Source: a virus
Taxonomy: Duplodnaviria > Heunggongvirae > Uroviricota > Caudoviricetes
Direction: 5' to 3' (one strand)
Virus record (IMG/VR): IMGVR_UViG_3300029033_000243
Coordinates: 1 to 25,616 of that record
DNA length: 25,616 nucleotides
Shown: positions 1 through 17,082 of the stretch, piece by piece
Layout of the letters: every line of letters starts with the position of its first letter
How positions within the stretch are numbered: position 1 is the stretch's first letter
Notes under the pieces: generated by a model
What the model saw: only the letters and a program-made list of their open reading frames with translations
What the model was told of the DNA's origin: nothing
Database searches by the model: none
Translations under genes and position numbers: made by a program

Positions 1-1062
1 TTCTCCCAAACCAAGGTATGTGAGAAGACCAGCTACATCCTTTCCACTCAAATTAGTCAGCGTATTGTCCAGCGGTTGTTTACCTGCCAGCGCATTAAGC
101 ATTGTCGTGGCAAAGTTCGGATCATTCCCCAGTGCCGCCGCCAGTTCGTTCAGTGTATCCAGTGCCGCAGGTGCAGAACCCACCATTGCTGCAATCGCTG
201 ATTTCACAAAAGCCGTAGTGGCAATCTGTGTATTGTTGACCGACTGCGCCGCCGTGGGGGCTGTTGGCGTTCCGGTGAGTGCCGGACTCGATAGCGGCGC
301 TTTCAGTGCCAGCGCATTGTTAATGGTGGTACTGAATTTCGGATCATTGTTAATGGCTACGGCTATTTCTTTCAGCGTGTCCAGCGTGGCTGGCGCACCA
401 TTAATAAGAGCCGTCAGTGCCGCCTGAACAAACTCGGTGGTCGCAACCTGCGTGGTGTTATTCCCCGCCGCTGGCGTTGGCGCTTTGGGTGTCCCGGTAA
501 ACGTAGGACTTTCTTTCTGTGCATACTGTGAATGCGGGTCCGGTGCGGCAAGATGTTTTGCCATCTGATCATCTGCGTACACCTTCAGCTCCAGTACCTT
601 ATCATCCACATACTTGCGGGTTGCCAGCACTACGGCAGGGTCGATTTTCAGGGTGATATTGTCCGTGCTGCTGGTAATCAACACCATACGCACGGTCTGG
701 GTACGCCCGCTGCCTTCAGCCAGTTGCGGCTTATAGCTTTCCGGGCAGTTCCCCACGGCAATCAATGCCCCTGACTCATCAAACAGGCCCACTTCACGTA
801 TCCACCAACCGCCCTCGTTTTCAGGGATCACCTGTTCGGCAATAATCTGGCTGCTGTTCTGCGGGTCGATATAGAGCATATTCAGCGCAGCCCGGCGTTT
901 CTCATTTACCAGTGCAGTCTGCTTTGCGTCCGGCGTCGGCAATGCTCCGCCGCCATCGCCCACCGCCATATGGGTAATTTTTAGCGGCACACCGAGCGCG
1001 GCGGCGCTGGCAAGTTTCGCCGCGCCAATATCCGTCAGCAGGGTATAAAATTTTGTGCTCAT
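1..1062 (-). CDS. H: tail fibre protein gpH, N-terminal ~354 codons (gene continues beyond window start)
   Basis: Reverse-strand ATG at 1062-1060 overlapping the gpI stop (ATGA coupling); translation MSTKFYTLLTDIGAAKLASAA...MAVGDGGG...ESYKP..AEGSG recalls the P2 gpH N-terminus; Ala/Thr-rich repeats follow. Not in the ORF track because no stop lies inside the window. Confidence 0.8.
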   Translation of the reverse strand, partial: MSTKFYTLLTDIGAAKLASAAALGVPLKITHMAVGDGGGALPTPDAKQTALVNEKRRAALNMLYIDPQNSSQIIAEQVIPENEGGWWIREVGLFDESGALIAVGNCPESYKPQLAEGSGRTQTVRMVLITSSTDNITLKIDPAVVLATRKYVDDKVLELKVYADDQMAKHLAAPDPHSQYAQKESPTFTGTPKAPTPAAGNNTTQVATTEFVQAALTALINGAPATLDTLKEIAVAINNDPKFSTTINNALALKAPLSSPALTGTPTAPTAAQSVNNTQIATTAFVKSAIAAMVGSAPAALDTLNELAAALGNDPNFATTMLNALAGKQPLDNTLTNLSGKDVAGLLTYLGLGE

Positions 1063-1664
1063 GGATTCACTCTCATTGTGTCAATAACATGGACCGCCCC
1101 GCCTTCATGCGCGGTGCCGCCGGAAATAATTGTTTCGTTGATATACGGATAGATCGTGATTTCTTCGCCAAGATAGCTGGCGGCTCCCACCCAATGCGGG
1201 CCGCTGGTCTGCAGGTTGATGGACATGCCGATCATGTGACGGCTACATGGTTTGGCATCGCTTATCAGTCGCTCAAGTTCCAGATAGGTATCTTCAGTGA
1301 TGCCCTGGTCCTGCACGCCGATATCCAGGCGAAACGTGCCCGGTGCCTCTCCGGTTTGCCACCACTCAATAATGCGGATCAGAAAGCCGAACGGCTCCAC
1401 AACCCGCCGCACGGCACTGGTGGTCCCTTTATGCTGATGAATATAAAAAGCATCCTTCACCACCTGGCGCTTGACGCTTTCTGTCCAGCCTTCGTCCCAG
1501 CGATCCACAGAGAACGCCCAGGCGAGATAAGGCAGGAAGCTGACCGGGCAGGTAGCCGGATTCCACAAGTCACGCAGCGGCACCTGCAGATCAGAAATCC
1601 CGCTGCACGTTTGCGCCAGTCGGCGCTCCAGTGAAGTTGACCCCGATGGCAGCAGACTATTCAT
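1059..1664 (-). CDS. I: baseplate assembly protein gpI
   Basis: 201-aa ORF; ...RDLWNPATCP...LPYLAWAFSVDRWDE... matches remembered P2 gpI; position between J and H. Confidence 0.85.
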   Translation of the reverse strand: MNSLLPSGSTSLERRLAQTCSGISDLQVPLRDLWNPATCPVSFLPYLAWAFSVDRWDEGWTESVKRQVVKDAFYIHQHKGTTSAVRRVVEPFGFLIRIIEWWQTGEAPGTFRLDIGVQDQGITEDTYLELERLISDAKPCSRHMIGMSINLQTSGPHWVGAASYLGEEITIYPYINETIISGGTAHEGGAVHVIDTMRVNP

Positions 1665-2565
1665 CCGTTCCCCCGTTGGTCACGCTCCACTCCGTACATG
1701 ATGCCGCCTGCGTTTTGTTCAAAACCACATCCGCCAGCGGCGAAGCCAGCTCCACACGCTGCACACCCTCAACATGCAGGGCGGCAAAGATGGCGCTACG
1801 GCGAATATCCCGACCAAGCCGCGTCTGACTGGCGATGTATTTCTGCAGGCTGGCTTTTGCCGCTGCCATTACCGGCTCTGCTTCCGGCCCCGGATAGAGA
1901 AAAATGGTGGCTTCCACGCGATACGGGATGATTTCTGCGCTGCGAACCGTCAGACGGTCAGCCACCGGGCGAACGTTCTCACTGTTCAGAGCTTTTTCCA
2001 CCACGTCCAGCAGGTCTTTTTCTGCTGTTCCGTCGCCTTCACGGCTCAGGACCGTAAGCACCACCTCTGCAGGTGCCGGGCTGGTTGCACTGGCATCCGC
2101 CACCCGACCGTCGGCGCTTCGGGCATGAAATTCATAAGCTGCGGTTGGCCCCGCAACCGAAAGCCCTTCAAAAGCCGCAGGCACACGCAGGCGTAACGCT
2201 TCATCGCTTTCCATCACGGCCGCAACGGGTGGCACAGCGTCATTATCAGCAGGCGTCACCGTCAGGCGTTTCACGTTGTAGTTGGCAGCGAGCTGGTCAA
2301 GATCGCCGCCCATCGCGTAAGCCACCATCACAGCCTGCGCGGCTTCGTTAATGCGCTGGCGCAGAAGCAACTCTCGGTAAGCGTTCTCCTGAAGCAATTT
2401 GGTGACGGGTTCAGATTCCAGTTCCAGCGTGCGGATCACGGCTTCCTGCTCATCTTTCGGATGAAGCGCAACAAATTCGGCCTTGCGTTCGGCAAGCAGC
2501 GTCTCAAAGTCCGGCACATCGACAATCTGCGGCGCAGGCAACTGCGAAAGGTCAATCACTGCCAT
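1657..2565 (-). CDS. J: baseplate wedge protein gpJ
   Basis: ORF-track frame 1657..2604; start placed at internal Met (MAVIDLSQLPAP...), which matches the P2 gpJ N-terminus and gives a short overlap with W. Confidence 0.85.
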   Translation of the reverse strand: MAVIDLSQLPAPQIVDVPDFETLLAERKAEFVALHPKDEQEAVIRTLELESEPVTKLLQENAYRELLLRQRINEAAQAVMVAYAMGGDLDQLAANYNVKRLTVTPADNDAVPPVAAVMESDEALRLRVPAAFEGLSVAGPTAAYEFHARSADGRVADASATSPAPAEVVLTVLSREGDGTAEKDLLDVVEKALNSENVRPVADRLTVRSAEIIPYRVEATIFLYPGPEAEPVMAAAKASLQKYIASQTRLGRDIRRSAIFAALHVEGVQRVELASPLADVVLNKTQAASCTEWSVTNGGTDE

Positions 2566-2911
2566 TCTCTGCTCCTGTTGATACGGAAAGGGAAACAGGC
2601 ACACCGTTATTACGCCGCCCGGTCAGCCCCACCACCATTGAACCGTCAAAATTGCTGTTAATGGTGATGGAATCCAGCGTCAGCCGTGGCTCCCAGCGAC
2701 TCAGCGCCACATACACTGCCGACATGACCTGCAGGCGTAATGCCGGATTTTGTGGCTGGTCTATCAGTACCGACAGCAGGGAACCATATTCCCGACGGGC
2801 AATGCGGCTACCCTGCGGCGTCAGCAAAATGTCCCGCACCGACTGGCGCAGATGGTCCGTGTCTGTAATAGCTTTTCCGTTGCTCTGACTCATGCCGATA
2901 TACAGCGTCAT
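2552..2911 (-). CDS. W: baseplate protein gpW
   Basis: 119-aa ORF; ...DILLTPQGSRIARREYGSLL...DQPQNPALRLQ... resembles P2 gpW; V-W-J-I synteny. Confidence 0.85.
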   Translation of the reverse strand: MTLYIGMSQSNGKAITDTDHLRQSVRDILLTPQGSRIARREYGSLLSVLIDQPQNPALRLQVMSAVYVALSRWEPRLTLDSITINSNFDGSMVVGLTGRRNNGVPVSLSVSTGAENGSD

Positions 2912-3486
2912 ACCGGGCCTCCGGTTGTATCGCCGCCTTTCAGGACGCCAGTATGCTGATGCGCATCAACCACGATCCCGTTAGAACTCATCGCTCCGCC
3001 GCCCTGGGTAACGCCACCATTGATCACCACTTCGCTGTTAATGCGCGTGCGGTCAGCCTCCAGTACAAACTCACTGGTTTTCATGGTGATGTTGTCAGCG
3101 GCCTCAATGACCATTGATTTGATGCCCCTGACATACCAGCGCCCGGTGGCGGGTTCGTATTCAAACCAGCCACCGTCAGGATGTTCTGTCACGCAGGCGT
3201 CTGCCGACGTCGACGGTGGCGCGAACTGATTCGAATAGACAGCGGGCAGCGCAAAGGCAGTCTCCAGATTGCCGCCCAGACTCAGCAGCACCACCTGCTC
3301 ACCTTCTGATGGTTTCCACCATGTGCGGGCATTACCCGCGCGCAGCGTCAGCCAGTTAATCCAGTTAGTTTCAAGGTCGCCCGTTTTCACCCGGCAAAGC
3401 CAGTTTGTCCTGTCCACTTCGGTGACTACCCCAGTGCGGATCAGGTTGGTGATAAGGCGCATGATTTCGGTTAATTGTGCGTTCAT
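2908..3486 (-). CDS. V: baseplate spike/assembly protein gpV
   Basis: 192-aa ORF, N-terminus MNAQLTEIMRLITNLIRTGVV resembles P2 gpV; stop/start overlap with W. Confidence 0.85.
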   Translation of the reverse strand: MNAQLTEIMRLITNLIRTGVVTEVDRTNWLCRVKTGDLETNWINWLTLRAGNARTWWKPSEGEQVVLLSLGGNLETAFALPAVYSNQFAPPSTSADACVTEHPDGGWFEYEPATGRWYVRGIKSMVIEAADNITMKTSEFVLEADRTRINSEVVINGGVTQGGGAMSSNGIVVDAHQHTGVLKGGDTTGGPV

Positions 3487-3532
3487 AAGGCAACTATGGC
3501 AGCCTTTTTCTTAATTCAAAATTTGATAATAT

Positions 3533-3550
3533 TGTGTCGCTTACCACACA
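3533..3550. promoter_or_regulatory. TGT-N12-ACA dyad, putative Ogr/Delta-type late-promoter activator site (P_V region)
   Basis: Read directly: tgt-gtcgcttaccac-aca between the V start (3486, minus) and the cargo gene RBS (AGGAGA 3551-3556). P2-family late promoters carry this dyad upstream of the -35 region. Spacing to the V start codon is short, so the exact transcription start is uncertain. Confidence 0.4.
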
Positions 3551-3565
3551 AGGAGATAAACATCA

Positions 3566-5011
3566 GTGAACACGTATGAAACAATTAAAGTTACTTTTTC
3601 TTATGACCACAACCCAATTACTATTAATGACGATAATATAAAAACAGAAAACAGTATCGAAATGACTTGCAATGTTACTGTCAACAATAAAGAAAGCTGG
3701 GATAGGATTCAGATAAAGACCTATAGTAAAAAAACCATCAAGCTTTATGGAAAAAACAATTTAGACATTGAATTTTGCACTCATTATGTAAATGGTGATG
3801 TTCGCTCAGTGATAAAACTAATCGATTGTAGAATAGAAAACATCGTCGACCATCACTCAGGAAAAACTCAATACTATACATTTAACATCATTCCCAATGA
3901 AGTCATTATAAATAATAAAGCACATAATACGCCTGATACGGAAATAACATTCTACAACAGTGACCATCAACTACTTTCCCCTAACATTCAGTACAATTTA
4001 TCTTCGGATGGTAACATCACTCTTACAAAGTCAGAGCCTATTATTGTTAAACTTAACAATGACGAAGATATAAAATTAGATATCGAATCAAAACTAGAAC
4101 GCGATGAAAAATTTGAAATCAGCACAAAACAAATCCTAAAAATAAAGTCCAATAATTCTAATTTAACCATTGATGATGTAAGAAATAACTACATTGACAA
4201 AATTGACGCATTTAATGATATCTTATCATTTATCAATAGTAACAAAGTAGTTTGTCGTTACTGGAACCTAAAATCTAATGATGGTGTATATACAGTTTTT
4301 CGCTGTAGGATAAAAAATCCTATTAAGGATACCAAAAAAAAACACTTAATGATGCCATTACAAGCCAAAGAAAATATTGAAAATATGTTTCACACATATT
4401 TGTCATCCCATTACAGACAGAACATCCGATTAGCCATTAATGTCCTCAATGCATCAAACCAATATCTTGAGTCTCGATACCTTTCACTTTTCCAATCTTT
4501 TGAATCTATTATTTTAACTCATAAAGAAAAAAACAATACGACCTTCATTCTATGTGAAAGCGAGTTTAGATCATTAAGACAAACAATTGAAAGAATCATC
4601 ACCAAGGACGTTATCAAAGATTCAAAAACTAGAGGAAAAATAAAAAACAAACTAGGAGAACTGAATAGAATATCATTAAAAGATGCCACACAAGAATGTC
4701 TTAAAGAACATTTAATCCATACTCATGACTTATGGCCATTGTTTAATGAATCTGGTAAGCTAGGACTTTCTGAAATCAGAAATATAATTATACATGGTGT
4801 AATTATACCAAGTGACAACTTGATAAACATTGCAGTTGCTTGTGAACATTTAACAATATATCTAACCAGATTAATTCTATGTCTTCTTGGATGCGATCAC
4901 CGTGAAACAATATATTCTGAAGAGCATTTGAGGTTTAGTTCAAACGTAAATGATTTTGCCTTTTGGGAACATCATCGAAAATCTTTAACAGAGGCACTTA
5001 AAACTCATTAA
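3566..5011 (+). CDS. AT-rich cargo gene: 481-aa protein of unknown function with a C-terminal HEPN-like Rx4H motif (candidate abortive-infection/defence protein)
   Basis: GTG start 9 nt after AGGAGA; strongly AT-rich versus flanks; opposite strand to the surrounding morphogenesis genes; sits where P2 carries non-essential orf30 between S and V; motif SEIRNIIIHG (R405-x4-H410) about 77 aa from the C-terminus. Confidence 0.7.
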   Translation: MNTYETIKVTFSYDHNPITINDDNIKTENSIEMTCNVTVNNKESWDRIQIKTYSKKTIKLYGKNNLDIEFCTHYVNGDVRSVIKLIDCRIENIVDHHSGKTQYYTFNIIPNEVIINNKAHNTPDTEITFYNSDHQLLSPNIQYNLSSDGNITLTKSEPIIVKLNNDEDIKLDIESKLERDEKFEISTKQILKIKSNNSNLTIDDVRNNYIDKIDAFNDILSFINSNKVVCRYWNLKSNDGVYTVFRCRIKNPIKDTKKKHLMMPLQAKENIENMFHTYLSSHYRQNIRLAINVLNASNQYLESRYLSLFQSFESIILTHKEKNNTTFILCESEFRSLRQTIERIITKDVIKDSKTRGKIKNKLGELNRISLKDATQECLKEHLIHTHDLWPLFNESGKLGLSEIRNIIIHGVIIPSDNLINIAVACEHLTIYLTRLILCLLGCDHRETIYSEEHLRFSSNVNDFAFWEHHRKSLTEALKTH

Positions 5012-5018
5012 TATCGTA

Positions 5019-5041
5019 ATGGCTAACGATGCGTTAGCCAT
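5019..5041 (+). terminator. hairpin between convergent cargo gene and S (possible terminator)
   Basis: Perfect inverted repeat atggctaacg-atg-cgttagccat followed by ttcatt; overlaps the 3' end of S. T-tract is weak. Confidence 0.3.
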
Positions 5042-5472
5042 TTCATTAGTAAATCACTAACGATTAGATAACTATTATTACTATAACCCAGAAGGCGACG
5101 CTCTGCGTAACGGACCTCCGGTCCTTTGCGGCTGACGCGATCACGCAAGCCGTAATGGTGAACACGGGCAATGCGCTGCACCCTACCTTCAAACTGTACG
5201 CTGGCAGAATCGGCGCTGGCTGCAGTTTTCAGGTATTTTGTGGTGCGCAGCTTTGTAAACATCTGACGTTTGATGCGCCCCTTTTTGCTGCGTGCTGTTA
5301 CCCTGCGCGGCTCATAACTGCTGCCATCTGGATTGCGCTGCATCCTGATGTTCTGCTGCTGTGTCCGGCGCAGTTCCTGCGCCAGCTGGCGCATCATGCG
5401 GCTTCTTGCGGCTGGCTCCAGATTCGCCAATAATGCACTCAGCCAGTCGTCCACCTTCTGCAGTTCAGCCAC
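5023..5472 (-). CDS. S: tail completion protein gpS
   Basis: 149 aa; synteny (follows R) and P2 gpS-like size and sequence. Confidence 0.8.
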   Translation of the reverse strand: MAELQKVDDWLSALLANLEPAARSRMMRQLAQELRRTQQQNIRMQRNPDGSSYEPRRVTARSKKGRIKRQMFTKLRTTKYLKTAASADSASVQFEGRVQRIARVHHYGLRDRVSRKGPEVRYAERRLLGYSNNSYLIVSDLLMKWLTHR

Positions 5473-5917
5473 GTTTCACCGTCCACATTTCTTCAGGTTC
5501 ATCAGGTTCCGCTACCGCTTCAACACTCGACACACTGCCGTCAGTGCTGACAAGCACACGCTCCGTCAGTTGCAGGTTCAGGCTGATATCACAGACATCG
5601 TTGCGCAGAATATCCACCTCAAAGGTGAATAGTTTTTCCCGTAACGTCGGGTTATTGATGGCATCAGGCTGGTTATCCCGCAGCCACAGCAAAACCGGGG
5701 CCATCAGCAGATTCTGGTCGCCGCTGAAATCCTCAATCACCACGTTCAGGGTGTAGCGGTATTCCCATGACATGGAGCTGGCCCCGCTGGCAACCAGCGA
5801 ACCGTTATCCACAAACAGATGCAGTTTGTCCGGGTTATTACGGACATAAGGCACTGCTTTATTAAGGGCGTGGCGCAGGGATTGTGGTTTGTTCACTGTT
5901 TCGCTCCTGACACGCAA
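5465..5917 (-). CDS. R: tail completion protein gpR
   Basis: 150 aa; follows the lysis genes as in P2; overlaps the S start. Confidence 0.8.
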   Translation of the reverse strand: MRVRSETVNKPQSLRHALNKAVPYVRNNPDKLHLFVDNGSLVASGASSMSWEYRYTLNVVIEDFSGDQNLLMAPVLLWLRDNQPDAINNPTLREKLFTFEVDILRNDVCDISLNLQLTERVLVSTDGSVSSVEAVAEPDEPEEMWTVKRG

Positions 5918-6149
5918 TAATCATGTCCACTTTGTCTGCACAGACCGCCCAGGCGGCCTCCGTTTCATCCAGCAACGCGTTCAGGTCACCGTTAGTGCGC
6001 GGCGCTGCCTGCCCCAGCCGACACGGCGTCACTCGCGGACAACCACTGACGGTAAGCTGCACCTCCGGTGAGTGTCGGGCGTTCCCGCAGCCGGATAATG
6101 TCAGCAGGCAAAGGAGTATCAGCCCAGCGGCGTAAATCCTCGTTCTCAC
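5862..6149 (-). CDS. lysC: LysC, o-spanin (Rz1-like outer-membrane lipoprotein), overlapping lysB out of frame
   Basis: 95 aa; signal peptide plus lipobox LLTLSGC; Pro-rich C-terminus; starts inside lysB in another frame and extends past its stop, as in P2 lysB/lysC. Confidence 0.7.
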   Translation of the reverse strand: MRTRIYAAGLILLCLLTLSGCGNARHSPEVQLTVSGCPRVTPCRLGQAAPRTNGDLNALLDETEAAWAVCADKVDMIIACQERNSEQTTIPAPRP

Positions 6150-6420
6150 GTTTCAGTTCCTCAATCCGGTGTTGTCGTTGTCTCAGTAGTGCGCTGGTCT
6201 GTTCTGCGTCGGCATAGAGTCGCGCCTGCTCCCGGTTGTTGGTTTCAGCCAGAATGGACAGACTGATCAGCTGGCTATTTTTCTTCGTTAGTTCGTGCGC
6301 TTTACTTTTCAGCGCCGCGCGCTGCGTTTCGATGGTGTGGCTGGCGCTGTTAAGCCGCCACGACTGCCAGCCCAGCGCAACGAGTGCCAGCGCCGCCACT
6401 ACCGCCAGCGCACGTGTCAT
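5992..6420 (-). CDS. lysB: LysB, i-spanin (Rz-like)
   Basis: 142 aa; N-terminal TM (ALAVVAALALVALGW) followed by a charged coiled-coil region; directly downstream of the endolysin. Confidence 0.75.
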   Translation of the reverse strand: MTRALAVVAALALVALGWQSWRLNSASHTIETQRAALKSKAHELTKKNSQLISLSILAETNNREQARLYADAEQTSALLRQRQHRIEELKRENEDLRRWADTPLPADIIRLRERPTLTGGAAYRQWLSASDAVSAGAGSAAH

Positions 6421-6932
6421 AGTCCAGCTCCTTTAAGGCACCAGGCCATCTCCCGCGCACGGCGGTTATCCAGCCCCTGATTAAACACACCTTTTACATA
6501 AACCCAGCGCGGCAACTGTCGGCATGCATCCGCCCAGCGCCGCTGATTGAGCAATTTCACCAGCGTGGAACTGCAGGCATTGCCCGTACCCACGTTGAAG
6601 GCAAACGACACCGTAGAGTCATACACCTTCTGCGGCGGCTGTTGCTTCACACACCTTTCCAGCGCCCGCTCCACACGCAGCACGTTGGAGATCAGCCCTT
6701 CTGCTGCCTGTCGCTCCGTAATGGTTTTGCCGGGAATGACGCCCGATGTATTACCAATGCCGTCGGTCCAGACACCCGCGCTGCACTGATACGGCTGCAG
6801 ACGACAGCCTTCGTAATCGGCAATCAGTTTCAGCCCCTCCACGGAGGTGTGAAGCTGCTGAAAACCCGGCAGCGTGGCAGCAATAGCCAGCACGGTCCCG
6901 ACAAGGCAGCGTTTAACGATTGATGGATTCAT
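6417..6932 (-). CDS. K: endolysin, GH24 lysozyme with putative N-terminal SAR (signal-anchor-release) segment
   Basis: 171 aa; weakly hydrophobic Gly/Ala-rich N-terminus (LVGTVLAIAATLPGF); catalytic-type spacing YEGCRLQPYQCSAGVWTDGIGNT (E-x8-C/D-x5-T) as in P21-type lysozymes. Confidence 0.8.
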   Translation of the reverse strand: MNPSIVKRCLVGTVLAIAATLPGFQQLHTSVEGLKLIADYEGCRLQPYQCSAGVWTDGIGNTSGVIPGKTITERQAAEGLISNVLRVERALERCVKQQPPQKVYDSTVSFAFNVGTGNACSSTLVKLLNQRRWADACRQLPRWVYVKGVFNQGLDNRRAREMAWCLKGAGL

Positions 6933-7128
6933 AGTCCTCCCGCGAGATCTGCCCGTCGCGCAGAAGCTGGTAGGCTTTGTGTTTGTAGTACCAGTTGATA
7001 GCCAGCATCAGCACACCGATCATCAGGCCGCCCAGCGTTGAGGCATCCTTGATGGACAAATCGCCCAGCCAGGCCAGCACGACGGCGATGCAATACGTGA
7101 TAAAGGCGCTGATTCGCTCAAGCGTCAT
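6913..7128 (-). CDS. small 2-TM holin/pinholin-like protein
   Basis: 71 aa, two hydrophobic helices (AFITYCIAVVLAWLG, LGGLMIGVLMLAINWYY) and a charged C-terminal tail; immediately upstream of and overlapping the endolysin. Not P2 Y-like in size. Confidence 0.55.
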   Translation of the reverse strand: MTLERISAFITYCIAVVLAWLGDLSIKDASTLGGLMIGVLMLAINWYYKHKAYQLLRDGQISREDYESINR

Positions 7129-7131
7129 AAT

Positions 7132-7335
7132 TCAGTCCCATAGCTGGACGGTCTGCACGGTGGTGGTTGTCGGTATGTCCGGCAGCTCCACCTGCAACCC
7201 GTGAGGTAAAAAGGGGCCGTATTCGGCAAGCCCCGGATTTGCCTTCAGTACCTGCTCCGTGACACCCTGCGTGCGCCCGTAATGACGCCAGCAAAGCGCG
7301 TCCACCGTGTCATACTGATGCGCACGCACTTTCAT
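7132..7335 (-). CDS. X: tail protein gpX
   Basis: 67 aa; MKVRAHQYDTVDALCWRHYGRT... recalls P2 gpX; follows L. Confidence 0.8.
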   Translation of the reverse strand: MKVRAHQYDTVDALCWRHYGRTQGVTEQVLKANPGLAEYGPFLPHGLQVELPDIPTTTTVQTVQLWD

Positions 7336-7799
7336 CAGATAAGCTCCACTGTGCAGTGCGGCGCATCCTGTACCCGGCTGATGGCCCAGCGGGCGTCACG
7401 CCACAAATCACCGCTGGCTTCTGCCAGTTCCTCGCCTCGCTTCACACCCGATGCCGTGGCGTCATAGTCCTGGTATCGTTCGTTGAGCATGGCGCGTGCC
7501 CAACAATAAACCGCGTTGAAATAGTGCTGAATGCGCTCACTTTTGCCGTCCAGCTGTTCCGCCGGAACCTCTGCCAGCGAGGCATACCCCAGCATCTGCT
7601 GGCGTCTGCGAAACTCATACAGCTCTGCGTTGACCTCCGAAATTGCCGACAGGGCAACCTGCTTTAAACGCGGCTGCGTCACCGTGCCGTCAGTGCGCAT
7701 GACACTGCGAAACTCCGACAGGTCCACATCAGGCCAGAACGGCGTATTTCTGATGATTTCCGCCTGTTCCGGTGCCTGTTCTGGCGCAACAAACTTCAT
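7335..7799 (-). CDS. L: head completion/stabilisation protein gpL
   Basis: ORF-track frame 7335..7862 begins at a GTG with no SD; the internal ATG at 7799 (MKFVAPEQ...) has AGGAGA 7 nt upstream, so the start is placed there. ...NTPFWPDVD...ELYEFRR...LWRDARWA... resembles P2 gpL. Confidence 0.8.
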   Translation of the reverse strand: MKFVAPEQAPEQAEIIRNTPFWPDVDLSEFRSVMRTDGTVTQPRLKQVALSAISEVNAELYEFRRRQQMLGYASLAEVPAEQLDGKSERIQHYFNAVYCWARAMLNERYQDYDATASGVKRGEELAEASGDLWRDARWAISRVQDAPHCTVELI

Positions 7800-7894
7800 G
7801 CTGCTTTCTCCTGAAATAGAGGGCGGTGGACGGGGTTTTGATGTGGCAGAGCCTTTCGCCACCCCGTGCCGCCCGTGCGCGGGGGCACGTTCTG

Positions 7895-8545
7895 TCAGCG
7901 GCTGTCATTGCGCAGTCTGCGCTCCAGCTGCTGTTTGTCTTTTTTCACGCCACAGCGGGGATCGAGCTGTAACGCATGGTTGAGATGGTTAAGGGCGGAC
8001 GCCGGATTGCTTTCACTCAGGACAGCGCCAATCGCTTTATGCAGACGCGCCCGTGACTGGTCCGGCATATCCAGACCGTCTGTCAGCTCCAGCGTCTGCA
8101 GCAACAGATCGGCATCAAAGCCGGTAGTGGCAAGCATTGCGCTCTGTGCCGCGTCTGCCATTTCCTCTGCCAGCACGGTCTGCACGTTGCGGTTACCCAG
8201 CGGCATCACCCAGCCATGACGCAGGGCATGACGCCCGATCTCCAGCGCCCCGGCATAATCTCCGGCATCAATACGCCACAGCATCACGTACATCAGCACG
8301 TCATCCTGTTGAGCGCCTCCGGCAGCCAGAATACCCTCCGCCCAGGCGGCGTACTTCGGCAACAGCTCCACTTTGATTTCCGCTTTTTTGACCGTGGACT
8401 GAACGCCCTTGAGACGGCGGCGGTCTTCCGCCAGTTGCAGCAGCATCAGGTCATAGCCCGACGCGTGGCGAACGCTGCCGCCCTCACGGGCGGCCTGTTC
8501 AGCCTGAACGCGCAGGCGATGCTGCCGTGCGGGACTCAGGCTCAT
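7895..8545 (-). CDS. M: terminase small (endonuclease) subunit gpM
   Basis: 216 aa; position after N and P2 gpM-like sequence. Confidence 0.8.
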   Translation of the reverse strand: MSLSPARQHRLRVQAEQAAREGGSVRHASGYDLMLLQLAEDRRRLKGVQSTVKKAEIKVELLPKYAAWAEGILAAGGAQQDDVLMYVMLWRIDAGDYAGALEIGRHALRHGWVMPLGNRNVQTVLAEEMADAAQSAMLATTGFDADLLLQTLELTDGLDMPDQSRARLHKAIGAVLSESNPASALNHLNHALQLDPRCGVKKDKQQLERRLRNDSR

Positions 8546-8548
8546 GGG

Positions 8549-9607
8549 TTACGCTCCGGCTTCTGCTGCGGCGGCGCTGAAATCGCCAATCTGGATATTT
8601 TCCACCAGTGCGGCGCAGCGGTAGTCCTCAACCACATAGGCTTCGTTAACGGATTCAAAGTTTTCAATCCGGTCACGTTTCGGGTTGTCGATAACTGAAC
8701 GGCGGCGGGTATCTTCCTGCCAGTAGATGGACAGGTTATCCAGACGGGTGATCAGCAGCGCATTCGGCGGGAAGAACGGCGCACGCACGGCCTGCAGGCC
8801 ACCCATGCGTTTCTGGCTGATGATCATATCGGCAGCCAGTTTTTCACTGTTTTCCTGCTCTTTGTTGACCAGCGGGAAATACTTGTCAGACAACAGTTCA
8901 CGACCGCAAATCACCACCAGATCGTCATCGTCCTGGTAGACCACGTCGATAAGCTCATTAACGGCATCCATCACCACGGCGTCCAGGTTGGCATATTCGC
9001 CACCTTTACCGACTTTCACCGCGCCCGGTGTGGTTTCACCGCCCGTGGTGGTGCTGCCCATGACGTGATCCGGTGCATCCTCACGGATTTTCTGTAGCCA
9101 GCCTTTATTCACATCCTGCAGCAGCGGGTTTTCGCTGCGGTTGGAGGTTTTCGCACGCTTTACGCCGTTAAAGCCGATCATGATGCGGTCCAGTGCCTGA
9201 CGTTTCACGATGGCGTCACGGATACGCACCTGGAAATCCTGAAACTTCGCCCACAGGTCCAGCTTCGCGTAGGTCAGCACCGTGTCAAAGTTGGTCTGCT
9301 CGCATTTATATTCCACATCGACCATCAGCGTCGGATCGACAGGTTCACGCTCTTTCGCGGTGGTGTCAGTGGTTCCGGCAATGGTGCTGCCAACACCCAG
9401 CCCCAGCAGCTGACCGGACTGCTCAGTCACTGGCGTGACGTTAATCAGCGTCAGGAAAGCGGCGGACTGCTGGATCTGGTCTTCCAGCGTCTGCTGCACA
9501 GACGGCTCCACGGTGAACTTGCTGGACAGTTCTTCAACTGCCACACCGTTCAGACGCGCCAGCTGCTGCAGGTAAGCGTTAAAAGCAAAGCGGGTATTCT
9601 TCTTCAT
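8549..9607 (-). CDS. N: major capsid protein gpN
   Basis: 352 aa; MKKNTRFAFNAYLQQLARLNGV... recalls the P2 major capsid precursor; O-N-M-L order. Confidence 0.9.
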   Translation of the reverse strand: MKKNTRFAFNAYLQQLARLNGVAVEELSSKFTVEPSVQQTLEDQIQQSAAFLTLINVTPVTEQSGQLLGLGVGSTIAGTTDTTAKEREPVDPTLMVDVEYKCEQTNFDTVLTYAKLDLWAKFQDFQVRIRDAIVKRQALDRIMIGFNGVKRAKTSNRSENPLLQDVNKGWLQKIREDAPDHVMGSTTTGGETTPGAVKVGKGGEYANLDAVVMDAVNELIDVVYQDDDDLVVICGRELLSDKYFPLVNKEQENSEKLAADMIISQKRMGGLQAVRAPFFPPNALLITRLDNLSIYWQEDTRRRSVIDNPKRDRIENFESVNEAYVVEDYRCAALVENIQIGDFSAAAAEAGA

Positions 9608-9623
9608 CGGGTTTTATGCTCCA

Positions 9624-10457
9624 TCAGCAATTGGTCAGAGTGTCAGCGGGGGCGTTGCCGCCTGTTGCACGCTGGCGGTAGTCCTGGCGGCTGTCTTCAT
9701 GGCTCAGCTTGTCCACCAGTTCGTTAAAGGCGGTCTGATGTGCCTGCAGGGCAGTCTCCAGCTCAGACAGGCGTTCTTCCTGCTCAGACAGGGATTTTTC
9801 GGTGCGCGCACTCAGGTTCTGCTGCTCAGTGGCGACCAGTTCCACGGCCTTATGCACATCAGAGAACCGGGCGTCATCGGACTGCTCTTTTTTGGTGAAC
9901 AGCGCCGTGACACGGGCAAACAGGGACGGTTTGTCATCCTGGATTTCTTCCAGTTCGATCACCGTTTCCTCTGCAGCGGTAAAAAGATTGGCGGGATTCT
10001 GCTTGCGGTTTGCCAGCGGGTTATGGGCTGCACTAGCGCTGAATGTCAGCATTTCAGTGCCCAGACTGGCAGGGTCATCAGTGGCAGCCAGGCCGACCAG
10101 GTAGGCTTTGCCCGTATCAGCGAACTTCGGGCTGACTTCCATAGAGGTGAATAATTTCTGGCCTTTTTTCACCAGTTCCACCAGGGACTCCGTTGGCTCA
10201 ACGTCGGCATACAGCGCCATCTTGCCTGCCAGCGGACCTTCCGTGATTTCTTCAGCAAACAGCGCCGTCACCTTGCCGTAGCGGTTAAAGGTGCTGTCCG
10301 GCAGATAAGACTTGATGTGCTCAAGGTTAATCAGCGCGGTATACACCGCCGGGTTGTAGCTGGCTGCCATCTGTTCCAGCCATTCACGCTGGATTTCGCG
10401 TCCGTCGGTGGTGGCACCTTCCACCCCGATGCGAAAACGCTTTGCTTTCACTGTCAT
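9624..10457 (-). CDS. O: capsid scaffolding protein gpO
   Basis: 277 aa; MTVKAKRFRIGVEGATTDGREI... typical P2 gpO N-terminus; divergent from P. Confidence 0.9.
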   Translation of the reverse strand: MTVKAKRFRIGVEGATTDGREIQREWLEQMAASYNPAVYTALINLEHIKSYLPDSTFNRYGKVTALFAEEITEGPLAGKMALYADVEPTESLVELVKKGQKLFTSMEVSPKFADTGKAYLVGLAATDDPASLGTEMLTFSASAAHNPLANRKQNPANLFTAAEETVIELEEIQDDKPSLFARVTALFTKKEQSDDARFSDVHKAVELVATEQQNLSARTEKSLSEQEERLSELETALQAHQTAFNELVDKLSHEDSRQDYRQRATGGNAPADTLTNC

Positions 10458-10535
10458 GAGCCGTGCTCCGTTAGAAAAAACTTACTGGAGCCTTATGGTT
10501 GCGGTGATGGGGGCAGTGAAACAATGCGCGGTATT

Positions 10536-10553
10536 TGTACCGACAACCACACA
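10536..10553. promoter_or_regulatory. TGT-N12-ACA dyad in the divergent O/P intergenic region (putative Ogr-dependent late promoter element)
   Basis: Read directly: tgt-accgacaaccac-aca, about 85 nt upstream of the O start; palindromic, so orientation-independent. Confidence 0.4.
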
Positions 10554-10599
10554 AACCGCAGGCGGGGAAAGCCTTCATTCAAGGCTGTAGGTTTGTGCC

Positions 10600-12366
10600 A
10601 TGAACACCACACTGACACCCGCAGATCTCGATCCCCGTCGGCAGGCCATGCTGCTGTACTTTCAGGGATACCGCGTAGCCCGCATTGCTGAAATGCTGGG
10701 CGAGAAAGTTGCAACCGTTCACAGCTGGAAAAAACGCGACAAGTGGGGTGACTATGGGCCGCTGGATCAGATGCAGCTCACCACCGCCGCACGCTACTGC
10801 CAGCTCATTATGAAGGAGCACAAAGAAGGGAAAGATTTCAAAGAGATTGACCTGCTGGCGCGCCAGTCTGAGCGCCACGCGCGGATCGGCAAGTTTAACA
10901 ATGGCGGCAACGAAGCCGACTTAAATCCTAACGTCGCCAACCGCAACAAAGGCCCGCGCCGTCAGCCGGAAAAAAATGTCTTCACCGATGAACAGATTGA
11001 GAAGCTGGAAGAAATCTTCCATTCCTCCATGTTCAACTACCAGCGCCACTGGTGGGAAGCCGGAAAAACCAACCGCATCCGCAACCTGCTGAAGTCACGC
11101 CAGATCGGCGCGACCTTTTACTTTGCCCGTGAAGCCCTGATTGACGCCCTGCTTACCGGGCGTAACCAGATTTTCCTTTCCGCCAGTAAGGCACAGGCCC
11201 ACGTCTTTAAGCAGTACATCATCGACTTCGCCAAAGAAGTGGAGGTGGAGCTGAAAGGCGATCCGATGGTGCTTCCTAACGGGGCCACGCTTTACTTCCT
11301 CGGCACCAATGCCCGCACGGCCCAGAGTTATCACGGCAACCTGTATCTGGATGAATATTTCTGGATACCGAAATTTCAGGAGCTACGCAAAGTGGCTTCC
11401 GGTATGGCTATTCACAAGAAATGGCGGCAGACCTATTTTTCCACACCATCCAGTCTGACCCACAGTGCTTATCCGTTCTGGTCCGGTGCGCTGTTCAACC
11501 GTGGGCGCAACAAAGCTGACAAGGTGGACATCGACCTGTCCCACAGCAATCTGGCCCCCGGCCTGCTGTGCGCAGACGGGCAATACCGCCAGATAGTCAC
11601 CGTGGAAGATGCGGTGCGCGGCGGCTGTAACCTGTTCGACCTCGACCAGTTGCGCATGGAGTACAGCCCGGACGAATACCAGAACCTGCTGATGTGTGAG
11701 TTCGTGGACGATCTCGCGTCCGTGTTCCCGCTCAGCGAGCTGCAGGCGTGCATGGTGGACAGCTGGGAAGTATGGACCGACTTTCATGCACTGGCGCTGC
11801 GCCCGTTTGGCTGGCGCGAAGTGTGGATCGGTTATGACCCGGCAAAAGGTACGCAGAACGGCGACAGTGCCGGATGCGTGGTGGTGGCTCCGCCAGCCGT
11901 GCCGGGTGGTAAGTTCCGCATTCTTGAGCGTCACCAGTGGCGCGGGATGGACTTCCGCGCCCAGGCTGACGCCATCAAAAAACTCACCGAACAGTACAAC
12001 GTTACGTATATCGGTATCGACTCGACCGGCGTTGGTCACGGGGTTTATGAGAACGTGAAAGCGTTCTTTCCTGCCGTCCGGGAGTTTGTCTACAACCCCA
12101 ACGTTAAAAATGCCCTGGTACTCAAGGCCTACGACATTATCAGCCACCGCCGTCTGGAGTTTGACGCCGGACACACCGACATTGCGCAGTCATTCATGGC
12201 AATCCGTCGCGCAACCACCGCCAGCGGCAACCGCCCGACCTATGAAGCCAGCCGCAGCGAAGAAGCCAGCCACGCCGATCTGGCCTGGGCAACAATGCAC
12301 GCACTGTTTAACGAACCGCTGCAGGGCGAATCCGCCAATACCAGCAATATTGTGGAGATTTTTTGA
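10600..12366 (+). CDS. P: terminase large (ATPase) subunit gpP
   Basis: 588 aa; strong resemblance to P2 gpP along its length; stop overlaps the Q start (ATGA). Confidence 0.9.
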   Translation: MNTTLTPADLDPRRQAMLLYFQGYRVARIAEMLGEKVATVHSWKKRDKWGDYGPLDQMQLTTAARYCQLIMKEHKEGKDFKEIDLLARQSERHARIGKFNNGGNEADLNPNVANRNKGPRRQPEKNVFTDEQIEKLEEIFHSSMFNYQRHWWEAGKTNRIRNLLKSRQIGATFYFAREALIDALLTGRNQIFLSASKAQAHVFKQYIIDFAKEVEVELKGDPMVLPNGATLYFLGTNARTAQSYHGNLYLDEYFWIPKFQELRKVASGMAIHKKWRQTYFSTPSSLTHSAYPFWSGALFNRGRNKADKVDIDLSHSNLAPGLLCADGQYRQIVTVEDAVRGGCNLFDLDQLRMEYSPDEYQNLLMCEFVDDLASVFPLSELQACMVDSWEVWTDFHALALRPFGWREVWIGYDPAKGTQNGDSAGCVVVAPPAVPGGKFRILERHQWRGMDFRAQADAIKKLTEQYNVTYIGIDSTGVGHGVYENVKAFFPAVREFVYNPNVKNALVLKAYDIISHRRLEFDAGHTDIAQSFMAIRRATTASGNRPTYEASRSEEASHADLAWATMHALFNEPLQGESANTSNIVEIF

Positions 12367-13394
12367 TGGGAAAGAGTAAGAAGAACCGCGCTGCGGCGAC
12401 GAAACAGATCCAGCTTAAAAGCCAGACTACAGCCGAAGCATTCAGCTTCGGCGATCCCGTTCCTGTTCTGGACCGCCGAGAACTGCTGGACTATGTGGAA
12501 TGCGTACAGATGGACCGTTGGTATGAGCCGCCCGTCAGCTTTGACGGACTGGCGCGCACCTTCCGCGCTGCCGTGCATCACAGTTCCCCGATTGCAGTGA
12601 AATGCAACATTCTGACCAGTACATTTATCCCGCATCCACTCCTGAGCCAGCAAGCATTCAGCCGATTAGTGCAAGATTATCTGGTATTCGGTAACGCCTA
12701 TCTGGAAAAAAGGACGAACCGATTGGGAGGCATTCTATCGCTGGAGCCATCACTGGCAAAATACACCCGCCGGGGCGTGGATCTCGACACCTACTGGTTT
12801 GTGCAATATGGCATGACCACGCAACCCTACGAGTTCACCAAAGGCAGCATCTTTCACCTGATGGAGCCAGATTTAAACCAAGAGATTTACGGCCTGCCGG
12901 AATACCTGTCCGCCATACCTTCCGCCCTGCTGAATGAGTCCGCAACACTATTCCGCCGGAAGTACTACATCAACGGCAGCCACGCAGGTTTCATCATGTA
13001 CATGACTGACGCCGCGCAGAACCATGAGGACGTGAACAACATCCGCCAGGCCATGAAAAGCGCCAAAGGTCCAGGTAACTTCCGTAACCTGTTTATGTAC
13101 TCACCCAACGGCAAAAAGGATGGCATTCAGATCATCCCACTGTCAGAGGTGGCGGCAAAAGATGAGTTTTTGAACATCAAGAATGTGAGCCGGGATGACA
13201 TGATGGCAGCGCACCGCGTGCCGCCGCAGATGATGGGAATTATGCCTAGCAATGTTGGGGGGTTTGGGGATGTAGAGAAGGCGAGTAAGGTATTTGTAAG
13301 AAATGAATTAACTCCCCTGCAAGCTAAATTTGAGGAGGTTAATCAATTCACTGGATACGAAATAGTGAAATTTAAAAAATATTCTTTTGAGTAA
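12363..13394 (+). CDS. Q: portal (capsid vertex) protein gpQ
   Basis: 343 aa; P2 gpQ-like size and sequence; translationally coupled to P. Confidence 0.9.
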   Translation: MMGKSKKNRAAATKQIQLKSQTTAEAFSFGDPVPVLDRRELLDYVECVQMDRWYEPPVSFDGLARTFRAAVHHSSPIAVKCNILTSTFIPHPLLSQQAFSRLVQDYLVFGNAYLEKRTNRLGGILSLEPSLAKYTRRGVDLDTYWFVQYGMTTQPYEFTKGSIFHLMEPDLNQEIYGLPEYLSAIPSALLNESATLFRRKYYINGSHAGFIMYMTDAAQNHEDVNNIRQAMKSAKGPGNFRNLFMYSPNGKKDGIQIIPLSEVAAKDEFLNIKNVSRDDMMAAHRVPPQMMGIMPSNVGGFGDVEKASKVFVRNELTPLQAKFEEVNQFTGYEIVKFKKYSFE

Positions 13395-13402
13395 ATAAAA
13401 AC

Positions 13403-13433
13403 AAGCCATCCATATAAATATATTGGATGGCTT
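13403..13433 (-). terminator. rho-independent terminator of the ATPase-SIR2 operon (hairpin shared with the convergent Q gene)
   Basis: Perfect 10-bp stem aagccatcca / tggatggctt with an 11-nt loop; on the minus strand it is followed by TGTTTTTATTT, 6 nt after the SIR2-like ORF stop. Confidence 0.55.
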
Positions 13434-13438
13434 ATTAA

Positions 13439-14014
13439 TTAAGACTCAGCACACAACTCTAAAAAAGAACCTTTATAATAAAAAAGACCAGACTTATCAT
13501 TTAACTCTGTAAATAGCTTACAAGCTCTTTTATGACACTCCAATGCACTGTTTTCATTACGACTAACTATAATTGTTTCTTTCTCCTTATTGTCTGCATC
13601 CAGAAAACTCTTCAATAAGAATTGAATAATGTAATCTTCTTCAGGGAAAGAATACCCAATAAAAATCAGAACATCTGCTTGTCTTAGTTGACTAGATGAT
13701 TTAATAAATGCATTTTTGAAGTATTTATCACTATAATTTTGATCATTAGATGGTAATATTATATTCGGACATGACTTTATATCATTTAATGAGTCGTAAT
13801 CAATTTTAAAGCCATCACCTTCAGCAATAACCTCAAACCCACCATTTAATTTATAGAGTCCAACTCCACCTTTTTTAGGACAAGCGACTTCGTTATTAAT
13901 ATGAATGGGAAAACCACGTAATTGAGTCCTAGCAGGATTGGAGAATTTCAAAACCTTATCAATAACTATATCATAATTTGTAGTTATAATATCCAAAGAT
14001 TTGGAACATTCCAA
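13439..14014 (-). CDS. SIR2-like (NADase-type) effector, C-terminal portion; frame is open upstream to an in-frame TAG at 14132-14134
   Basis: ORF-track piece begins at TTG; carries ITTNYD (nt 13970-13984) and LIFIGYSFPEED (GYS nt 13649-13657) SIR2-type motifs; AT-rich; same frame as the 14132..14527 piece. Confidence 0.6.
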   Translation of the reverse strand: MECSKSLDIITTNYDIVIDKVLKFSNPARTQLRGFPIHINNEVACPKKGGVGLYKLNGGFEVIAEGDGFKIDYDSLNDIKSCPNIILPSNDQNYSDKYFKNAFIKSSSQLRQADVLIFIGYSFPEEDYIIQFLLKSFLDADNKEKETIIVSRNENSALECHKRACKLFTELNDKSGLFYYKGSFLELCAES

Positions 14015-14131
14015 TCCATTAAAAAACCTGATAATATCATCTTTATGTTTTCTTGCAGCACCCTTGCTATCAAGCTTAAATTCACTCGCAGGCAGTAATC
14101 TTACAAATTTATTCTTAATGTAATTCTTGAC

Positions 14132-14527
14132 CTACCGTTCAAAATAGTCCAGAGTCTGTTTATCCAAATGAGATGGTAAAAGACTAGGGTATCTGCGGTA
14201 AACATCAAGATTGTACTTAAAACTCTTAAATACGCCAGCCCTTTCCTTTTCACAAACAGTTTCTGGATGCAGATTCAGATTAAAAGATTCAAATAAAGAG
14301 AAAAATTTAAACTTATCAGAATATAATTCAGCTTCTTCTTTTGACAACGAGAAAACTTGATCACTCAGGGGATATTTTTCATCCCAAGCTTTAGAAAAAC
14401 CAGCACCTAAAAAAACACATATTTTCTTATCGTCTAGCTTCCGATGTAAATCATCGAAGGACTCTATTCCTAGAGAATTACCTTCTTGAGCCACACCATC
14501 ATAGTCAAAGTCTAATTTATCTAACAT
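14132..14527 (-). CDS. SIR2-like effector, N-terminal portion (Rossmann GAGxS motif), ending at an in-frame TAG
   Basis: 131 aa; KICVFLGAGFSKAW (nt 14393-14407) is the SIR2 dinucleotide-binding motif; ATG overlaps the ATPase stop (TAATG), indicating translational coupling. Confidence 0.6.
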   Translation of the reverse strand: MLDKLDFDYDGVAQEGNSLGIESFDDLHRKLDDKKICVFLGAGFSKAWDEKYPLSDQVFSLSKEEAELYSDKFKFFSLFESFNLNLHPETVCEKERAGVFKSFKYNLDVYRRYPSLLPSHLDKQTLDYFER

Positions 14528-15768
14528 TATTTTTCTTTCCCTACCAATCCCAAAAAGGAAGGAAGAACACCAAATTCCCCTCGAAAATACTTAGCCGAAA
14601 CCTTAGCATCTTTCCTAATTGAAAACTTTGATGCATTGATAATATTCGAGGCTTTTTCTTTATCTTTGATAATAATATTTAATTCATCTCTTCTGAAGCA
14701 TTCATCCAATAAAGGAATATTATGAGTAGATAATATAAATTGCATATCATTTTTCTCTAAATGATATGTTAAGATACTTTTAATTAAGGTGGTAGCCAGA
14801 GAATGATGAATAGATGCATCTACTTCATCAACATAAAGCGTAAACCCACAATCAGTTGTCCAAATAACTGCAGCCATGAATGTTAATATATTCATAGTCC
14901 CTTGTGAGAAAAACTCATCCCTCTCACCTGGACCTATGGTTGTAAAACCACCATCAAGATTTTTTATCTTGTAGACAAAGTGATATTTTTTATCACTACC
15001 TACAGGAAGAAAATCGACACCATCAATATGAAGGGGTGCCTTTAAAATAACATCACCATACAAACCTAACAGATTCTTAGCATTATCATTAATGGTTACC
15101 TTCCCATTATCATCTTTAGTCAGTAGTTCTTCAAACTTGGATTCAAAAAACTCCAACCCTTTACCAAAAAATATTTCAGGATTATATGGTAATTGAGATA
15201 CAGCCCAATCTCTAACATTAGTCATTTCTTTGGATTGCAAAGATTTCGCAAATGTTATTACTGCACCAGAATCTTTAATAATTGGTTTTATAAGCGTTTC
15301 ATGCTTTTTGTAAGTTGGTTTTTTAAACTCCAACTCATCTCCATTACGAATAAAAATACAACTTTCTTTTGCTCCTTTCTTCACTTCTCTTGAGTAAAGA
15401 TATTCACTAACAACCTTACCTTCAAAAACAGATATCCCATATCGAAGAAAAGTGTCTTTTTCTTTGTTTACAATAATAACTTCATAAGAGGTCGGACTTA
15501 GTCGATTTTTACTATCGAACATGTACGGTTTATGGAGTTCATTCAATGTGTCACGATGTATAGATCGAGCAAAATCATTTATTGCTCTTATTATTTGAGA
15601 TTTTCCTGCACCATTCCCACCAATAATTGCAGCAAATCGATTAATTCTTAATCCATTGTCTAACAACATAGTATGATCAAGGTGTTCATCACCAGCGGAT
15701 GACACAAAACTTAGAGTCTGCTGGTCTCTAAAGCTCTTATAATTCTCTATCGTGAAGGCAATCAGCAT
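14527..15768 (-). CDS. ABC-type / AAA_21-like ATPase (OLD/PtuA/AriA-like architecture), first gene of the two-gene cargo operon
   Basis: 413 aa; Walker A GGNGAGKS (nt 15598-15621, verified by translation); Walker B/D-loop LYVDEVDASIHH; late STHN motif; N-terminus MLIAFTIENYKSFRD typical of these ATPases; AT-rich. Confidence 0.8.
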   Translation of the reverse strand: MLIAFTIENYKSFRDQQTLSFVSSAGDEHLDHTMLLDNGLRINRFAAIIGGNGAGKSQIIRAINDFARSIHRDTLNELHKPYMFDSKNRLSPTSYEVIIVNKEKDTFLRYGISVFEGKVVSEYLYSREVKKGAKESCIFIRNGDELEFKKPTYKKHETLIKPIIKDSGAVITFAKSLQSKEMTNVRDWAVSQLPYNPEIFFGKGLEFFESKFEELLTKDDNGKVTINDNAKNLLGLYGDVILKAPLHIDGVDFLPVGSDKKYHFVYKIKNLDGGFTTIGPGERDEFFSQGTMNILTFMAAVIWTTDCGFTLYVDEVDASIHHSLATTLIKSILTYHLEKNDMQFILSTHNIPLLDECFRRDELNIIIKDKEKASNIINASKFSIRKDAKVSAKYFRGEFGVLPSFLGLVGKEK

Positions 15769-15912
15769 CTGAAACCCCTAATTTTGTGAAAAAAGTGCAA
15801 AATAGACATGATTAGTGAGTGTAATGCAGACTGAGCTAGGCTGTAAATGAAGATGTGAAGTTATCCTTTAATACTGTTCTTGCTTTCAACCAAATCTCAT
15901 ACTTAGCGCGCG

Positions 15913-15931: not shown

Positions 15932-15953
15932 TGCCCGCTTTATGCAGTGGTTT

Positions 15954-16830: not shown

Positions 16831-16838
16831 AACGTTTC

Positions 16839-17072: not shown

Positions 17073-17082
17073 AAAAGTCACC

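Follow-up and report, generated by a model that had tools for sequence, protein, structure and literature searches.

A single-gene cargo with a HEPN domain and a tail-tube-like N-terminal fold in the V/S slot of a P2-like prophage: a candidate anti-phage RNase

Why does a P2-like prophage carry an AT-rich gene in opposite orientation between two of its tail genes, and what could its product do for the lysogen? This question is raised by a stretch of viral DNA of 25,616 nucleotides (positions 1 to 25,616 of the IMG/VR record IMGVR_UViG_3300029033_000243; hereafter, the window), which belongs to a P2-like (Peduoviridae-type) prophage and comprises its late-gene half as well as its genes for replication and lysogeny. 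Genes for tail, baseplate, lysis, head and terminase are followed there by gpA, a CII/CI-type switch and an integrase. Between the baseplate spike gene V and the tail-completion gene S lies a gene for a protein of 481 amino acids, which probably is a prophage-borne HEPN RNase that works as a single protein, becomes active upon infection and protects the lysogen in the manner of superinfection exclusion or abortive infection. The coding sequence and the parts of the protein on which this reading is based are the following.

3566..5011, plus strand: coding sequence of the 481-amino-acid, two-domain protein, GTG start, TAA stop (open reading frame list; PGAP; PHROG 22870)
4355..5008, plus strand: C-terminal all-helical HEPN domain, residues 264-481 (predicted model)
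4778..4795, plus strand: catalytic-type HEPN motif R405-N406-x3-H410, followed by G411 (alignment and model)
4502..4504, plus strand: E313, 99% conserved, in the first long HEPN helix, family consensus FLxLFSALExL (alignment)
4658..4738, plus strand: conserved motifs E365-L-N367-R368 and D388-L-W390-P391, W390 being invariant (alignment)
3566..4330, plus strand: beta-rich domain with a predicted Hcp/phage tail-tube-like fold, presumed sensor, residues 1 to about 255 (predicted model)

That the C-terminal domain is a HEPN domain is supported by the conservation of its motif, by matches of a hidden Markov model to members of the family and by the predicted fold. The original prediction had pointed to SEIRNIIIHG as a motif of the HEPN type, and this motif is indeed present, with the codon of R405 at 4778-4780 and that of H410 at 4793-4795. 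Conservation of these two residues among homologues had been named as a check, and in an alignment of 112 relatives, which are about 20% identical to the query, R405, H410 and W390 form the only three invariant columns, while N406 and G411 are conserved at 98%. Among the full-length representatives, all 113 contain Rx4H and 111 the exact RNxxxH. The Pfam model HEPN_Apea (PF18739) matches 32 of 100 relatives at E ≤ 0.01 (best E 5e-10), and the alignment covers profile positions 1-133 of 136 across the motif-bearing region; the window protein and its two halves did not match this model even at E ≤ 10. The AlphaFold2 model, which was built on the family alignment, exhibits two domains at a predicted local distance difference test score (pLDDT) of 94.1 and a predicted template modelling score (pTM) of 0.90. 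In this model R405 is placed on helix 401-409 and H410 directly after the helix, and the helical C-terminal domain agrees with the HEPN fold and its four-helix core. The known structures nearest to this domain are HEPN toxins of the HepT type, which belong to toxin-antitoxin pairs. Judged by its sequence, the domain would be active as an RNase. The two conserved motifs around E365-R368 and D388-P391 possibly form a pocket or a regulatory loop.

The N-terminal region had been described as a domain of unknown function. It is, however, not featureless, as its model has the beta fold of Hcp and of tail-tube proteins. According to DSSP the model is rich in beta strands over residues 1-250, and Foldseek matched the domain to Hcp; the fold also matches tube proteins of contractile tails, while tube-protein matches in a fold search against BFVD were weak. 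The predicted likeness extends over Hcp and the tail tubes of contractile phages and siphophages. Conserved aromatic residues are found at W233 (84%), F129 (73%) and Y/F245 (71%). Its rate of divergence is about double that of the HEPN domain, a pattern that would be expected of a sensor, which it is presumed to be. In a model of the member P0136, which is 16% identical and comes from a non-phage context, strands and helices follow one another as in the window protein, so that the two-domain architecture extends across the family. A description of a Hcp/tail-tube-like domain paired with a HEPN defence protein was not found in the literature. Residues 140-199, inside this domain, gave a sub-threshold match to Pfam DUF7239 when the N-terminal half was searched alone (E 3e-4; 21.3 bits with a cutoff of 24.6).

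The coding sequence has the same boundaries in the PGAP annotation of a 99.1%-identical E. coli locus, NZ_AP045805.1 (WP_069914402.1, 'hypothetical protein'), and its sole match in PHROGs, over the full length and with 1010 bits, is to its own family PHROG 22870, which is listed as of unknown function. An exhaustive HMMER search (E ≤ 1e-3) yielded 463 representative clusters at 50% identity, mostly of about 480 amino acids and collinear with the query. A word-indexed profile search and a scan of genome contigs added only one more protein and two more loci. All distant members are named 'hypothetical protein' in their sources, and UniRef names a 92%-identical Salmonella cluster 'ApeA N-terminal domain-containing'. 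Searches of the PDB with the single sequence and with the family profile returned nothing useful. The gene is maintained by purifying selection, with a ratio of nonsynonymous to synonymous substitution rates (dN/dS) of 0.17 in comparison with a 70%-identical orthologue. It was found only in prophages: in the deposited phages megablast matches were confined to the initial ~90 nt of the query, which belong to gene V, and a tblastn search of 50,697 phage records gave no match to the protein.

The gene is a foreign insertion into the tail cluster, as can be seen from comparison with a related prophage (L003) in which the V/S junction is empty. The cassette and its flanks are as follows.

3487..5085 (approximately), no strand assigned: foreign AT-rich cargo cassette in the V/S (orf30) slot (homology to the empty V/S junction of L003; GC content)
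2908..3486, minus strand: baseplate spike gene gpV, left flank (tblastn; Pfam Phage_base_V on orthologous loci)
5023..5472, minus strand: tail-completion gene gpS, right flank (tblastn; Pfam Phage_tail_S on orthologous loci)

In L003 only 68 bp separate V and S. Homology between the window and this junction ends just past the start codon of V and restarts at about 5086. The GC content of the cassette is about 30% and that of the coding sequence 30.6%, compared to about 55-60%, or roughly 57%, in the flanking tail genes. An AT-rich gene running opposite to its neighbours was what the original prediction had described here, and the plus-strand reading frame between two minus-strand genes bears this out. 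The same applies to its status as sole cargo: within the V/S interval the gene leaves margins of 79 nt upstream and 11 nt downstream, and no second credible open reading frame, tandem repeat or Rfam RNA was found in the cassette. The cassette is a single-gene foreign cargo. From its limits it follows that the last ~20 codons of S are cassette-encoded as well, and an exchange of cassettes therefore alters the C-terminus of the tail-completion protein. The end of gpS (5023-5085) is AT-rich, derives from the cassette and differs from the C-terminus of S at the empty site. A prophage of E. coli 23CRST035 (L001) is 97% identical to window positions 1-12,368, and its V/S cargo is 99.1% identical to that of the window.

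Relatives of the protein with 92, 70, 37, 31, 28 and 24% identity are all located in the V/S slot and on the opposite strand. Their P2-like hosts are prophages of Salmonella, E. coli, Lelliottia and Pantoea as well as of metagenomes, with V proteins that are 49-97% identical to that of the window, and in all of them the relative is likewise a single gene. Other members of the family adjoin a gene for a TIR-domain protein or a Schlafen/AlbA_2-like gene. The same slot is occupied in P2 itself: as the original prediction had stated, Orf30 of P2 lies at the S-V position, and it has the same divergent/convergent orientation between S and V and is AT-rich. Orf30 is non-essential and its locus has long been recognised as a site of horizontal transfer (PMC3091744). 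The two proteins differ in that Orf30 has 261 amino acids and no Pfam domain, and homology between them was excluded (hhalign probability 0.1%).

Another cargo links the slot to a defence protein. According to the supplement of a preprint (bioRxiv 10.64898/2026.01.26.701840), the cloned Ec3ApeA starts right beside the gpV start, and a gene of the Ec3ApeA type was confirmed in the V/S slot of a P2-like prophage of E. coli EC416 (L023, 4101-5854). An experimentally validated defence protein therefore uses this slot. In E. coli EC416 the gene is annotated as two coding sequences (4101-4688 and 4736-5854) and is probably frameshifted or disrupted. As the slot holds the present family across deep divergence and in addition Ec3ApeA, other cargo of the slot, including P2 Orf30, becomes a candidate for defence genes. 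The studies of P2 hotspots that were consulted deal in detail with the old/tin and Z/fun loci only, and a description of the cargo of the V/S slot was not found in them.

The cassette also contains putative signals for expression of the gene and for regulation of its neighbour V.

3550..3555, plus strand: Shine-Dalgarno sequence AAGGAG, 10 nt before the GTG (kept in the cassettes of L006, L010 and L014)
3533..3550, no strand assigned: TGT-N12-ACA dyad, putative Ogr-type activator site for PV, centred 55.5 nt upstream of the V start codon
3524..3532, plus strand: candidate extended -10 element TGaTAATAT of the cargo's own promoter (sequence reading; kept in L006 and L010)
5018..5042, no strand assigned: hairpin with a perfect 11-bp stem and a 3-nt loop, between the convergent cargo and S genes

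Both the gene's own ribosome-binding sequence and a downstream hairpin that overlaps the end of S had been proposed, and both are present. The hairpin has a folding energy of -15.5 kcal/mol (z = -3.97 in comparison with shuffled sequences), overlaps the last codons and the stop codon of S and is kept in close relatives; in the L014 cassette another strong hairpin takes its place. No U-tract follows the hairpin on either strand, and a terminator scan made no call. The dyad is located at exactly 55.5 nt in ten of ten P2-like loci irrespective of their cargo (window, L001, L003-L006, L010, L014, L022 and L023), with eight different spacer sequences, and no second TGT-N12-ACA dyad exists in the 1.5-kb cassette. 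The record of P2 itself has an annotated PV activator binding site at the same distance from V, and from what is established for P2 we take the dyad to be a site of Ogr. In the window it directly adjoins the Shine-Dalgarno sequence of the cargo, so that binding of Ogr in the late phase could occlude the 5′ region of the cargo gene. Each cargo cassette carries its own version of the region upstream of PV. The candidate -10 element sits between the dyad and V, and comparable elements, resembling TGnTA(A/T)AAT, are present in L014 and L005; a two-hexamer promoter scan yielded no promoter for the cargo gene.

Among the abortive-infection families with which the gene had been associated, ApeA is the nearest, although canonical ApeA it is not. 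ApeA (Gao et al., 2020) is a single-protein HEPN abortive-infection system which cleaves tRNA anticodon loops and is activated via a pocket of its N-terminal and HEPN domains; cryo-electron microscopy revealed a predominantly alpha-helical protein of about 600 amino acids that consists of N-terminal and Mid domains plus a HEPN domain which is split and contains large insertions (Ec1-Ec4ApeA; Juozapaitis et al., 2026, bioRxiv 10.64898/2026.01.26.701840). Both systems consist of a single gene with a non-catalytic N-terminal region and a C-terminal HEPN domain, share the R-N-x3-H motif (RTRNNIVHSG in Ec3ApeA, EIRNIIIHGV in the window) as well as a similar first HEPN helix (LWIALESL and LFQSFESI), and have minimal HepT toxins as the closest solved HEPN fold. 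Ec3ApeA is moreover found in exactly the same slot of a P2-like prophage. The window protein differs by its 481 amino acids, its beta-rich, Hcp-like N-terminus and its shorter helical C-terminal domain of about 220 residues. In hhalign comparisons the family profile reached a probability of 0.35% with Ec1ApeA and of 2.9% with a profile of 18 ApeA sequences, and the overlap with canonical ApeA was limited to the first HEPN helix around E313 (LLNLWIALESL). The PADLOC model for ApeA (PDLC02157) matched none of 100 family members, whereas the positive controls were recovered (Ec1ApeA with 1386 bits, the C-terminal part of Ec3ApeA with 1.4e-10), and NCBIfam, including its apeA model, gave no match to the window protein at E ≤ 10. 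Membership in canonical ApeA was therefore excluded by PADLOC, NCBIfam, hhalign, size and helical architecture.

Ec1ApeA (L024:4151-5953) and Ec3ApeA (L023:4736-5851) do not match Pfam HEPN_Apea at E ≤ 0.1. As this model matches a third of the present family and not canonical ApeA, the Pfam name and the name of the defence system cover different proteins. The architecture of the window protein fits the 'ApeA-NTD1 + HEPN(Apea)' type listed in 2013, in which a mostly beta-stranded ApeA-NTD1 of about 300 amino acids with conserved aromatic residues precedes an Apea-type HEPN domain ('ApeA/BMEI1217'; Anantharaman et al., 2013, PMC3710099). This description is computational only and gives neither a fold for the N-terminal part nor a phage context (PMC3710099). 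The beta-rich N-terminus with its aromatic residues and the HEPN_Apea matches of 32 members agree with this type, while the window protein differs by its lack of a PF18739 match. A Pfam family for the ApeA N-terminus was not hit by any of 100 members (E ≤ 0.01) or 14 proteins (E ≤ 10), the presence of such a model in the library being unconfirmed. Bm1ApeA, a 'minimal homolog' of 467 amino acids, protects against DNA phages (bioRxiv 10.64898/2026.03.20.713152). It is not counted as evidence for the present family, as its first 133 residues, the part of the sequence that was compared, exhibit no similarity to the family.

For RNase activity, trigger, target, defence phenotype and a possible shut-off by Ogr, we infer the following course. 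In the lysogen the cargo would be expressed from its own promoter, and its C-terminal HEPN domain would be a metal-independent RNase, the composite active site of which, formed by R405 and H410 of two subunits, is held inactive. The fast-evolving tube-like domain, either by itself or jointly with the HEPN domain, would sense a cue of infection, which may be a phage protein or a small ligand derived from nucleic acids, and would thereby switch the RNase on. Cleavage of RNA would then halt translation and stop the incoming phage. The likeliest targets, to judge from ApeA, PrrC and RloC, appear to be anticodon loops of tRNAs, with phage RNA as the alternative. During late development of the prophage itself, Ogr bound at the 5′ region of the cargo may shut the gene off.

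Several observations weigh against this defence reading. No published experiment on the family was found in the literature, and scans of the window protein against Pfam, NCBIfam and PADLOC at E ≤ 10 gave no significant model. Most of the sampled HEPN_Apea matches within the family reach 14-24 bits and thus stay below the gathering score of 24.4. As the profile-profile likeness to ApeA is insignificant, the mechanistic analogy is taken from a different architecture. In comparison with its closest orthologue, from Salmonella (L010, 92% identical), the gene has a dN/dS of 0.63, which at such a short distance is noisy and could reflect noise, recent diversifying change or relaxed constraint. Some members stand alone among housekeeping genes, a setting that speaks neither for nor against defence.

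The tube-like fold of the N-terminal domain allows for two further ideas. The domain might mimic a tail tube or Hcp and act as a decoy that senses the tail assembly of a superinfecting phage. It would then engage the tube, the sheath initiator or the complex of tape measure and chaperone, or polymerise on it, and oligomerisation would unite HEPN domains into active sites, with Ogr silencing the cargo during tail assembly of the resident P2-like phage. We regard this version as improbable; if true, a defence protein would here recognise the assembly of virion tails through mimicry of a structural protein. Alternatively, the domain could load the protein into or onto the tail tube of the P2-like phage itself, such that the HEPN RNase is injected at infection. 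Fusions of Hcp to C-terminal toxins ('Hcp-ET') exist in type VI secretion systems, the N-terminal fold matches Hcp and tube proteins of contractile tails, and the gene is located within the cluster of tail genes, flanked by S and V, is divergent from PV and has the Ogr-type dyad region in common with it. Yet its orientation is opposite to both late operons, its GC content is foreign, related prophages with an otherwise intact annotated set of tail genes have an empty slot, and elsewhere the slot holds unrelated cargo without a tube-like domain, such as P2 Orf30 and canonical ApeA. As family members also occur outside phages and the N-terminal domain evolves fast, unlike tube proteins constrained by assembly, delivery by the tail is very unlikely.

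The closeness of the HEPN fold to HepT toxins brings up an addiction-type function, in which the protein would keep the prophage in place or kill cells that have lost it. Transformation with one ApeA homologue failed, presumably on account of toxicity (bioRxiv 10.64898/2026.03.20.713152). HepT/MNT toxins (PDB 8xdj, 7ae2) and minimal HEPN proteins (1jog, 1wwp, 2hsb) are, however, stand-alone proteins of about 130 amino acids with an MNT antitoxin partner, whereas the window gene has no partner and carries 255 residues fused in cis, as is typical of sensor-effector defence proteins. No adjacent gene for an MNT (nucleotidyltransferase) antitoxin was found in the cassette, and an RNA antitoxin or a two-gene system was excluded by the lack of an Rfam family, a tandem repeat and a second reading frame. 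With the relatives in the P2 slot all being single genes too, an addiction toxin is quite improbable. The RNase might instead serve the lytic cycle of the prophage, in turnover of host or competitor RNA, in host shut-off or in anti-defence. The start of the cargo overlaps the late-promoter activator site, so that late development could either promote or reduce its expression. Since empty sites reveal the gene to be dispensable for P2-like phages, homologues exist outside phages and the known single-protein HEPN systems of the same layout are defence systems, this appears unlikely. A catalytically silent HEPN domain that binds nucleotides or other ligands or dimerises as part of a non-nuclease protein is hardly to be expected: non-catalytic HEPN domains generally do not contain the Rx4-6H motif, and very divergent members of the family keep R-N-x3-H-G, with R and H invariant and N and G conserved at 98%.

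Further cargo of the same prophage would, going by sequence, provide a defence context for the V/S gene. The classic hotspot between portal gene and gpA (old/tin; window 13439-15768, minus strand) contains a second AT-rich cargo (32.5% GC), which encodes an ABC/AAA_21 ATPase of 413 amino acids (PADLOC AbiLi, 9.6e-54), a SIR2-like open reading frame of 191 amino acids and, between the two, a frame of 131 amino acids without match. The SIR2-like frame matches only the C-terminal half of SIR2 models, and a split or a frameshift of the SIR2 gene is possible. It is this putative pairing of SIR2 with an AbiL-like ATPase that would make up the defence context. In the prophage of E. coli 23CRST035 the same hotspot holds a 778-amino-acid AAA family ATPase (window 12400-17100 compared with L001 21700-25700). 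As the two prophages have the V/S cargo in common but differ in their cargo at this hotspot, the two slots vary independently. Directly downstream of gpA, with an overlap of 4 nt between the reading frames, the window encodes a D12-class N6-adenine DNA methyltransferase (19841-20758, minus strand; Pfam 1.8e-76), an orphan Dam-like methylase with possibly a role in anti-restriction.

For the biology of P2-like phages, these findings would make the S/V (orf30) junction a third, overlooked defence hotspot. The combination of a HEPN effector with a tube-like domain offers a concrete idea of how infection may be sensed. A sizeable family of HEPN proteins, nearly all of them annotated as 'hypothetical' and overlooked by current defence finders, becomes a candidate for a new single-gene anti-phage system.

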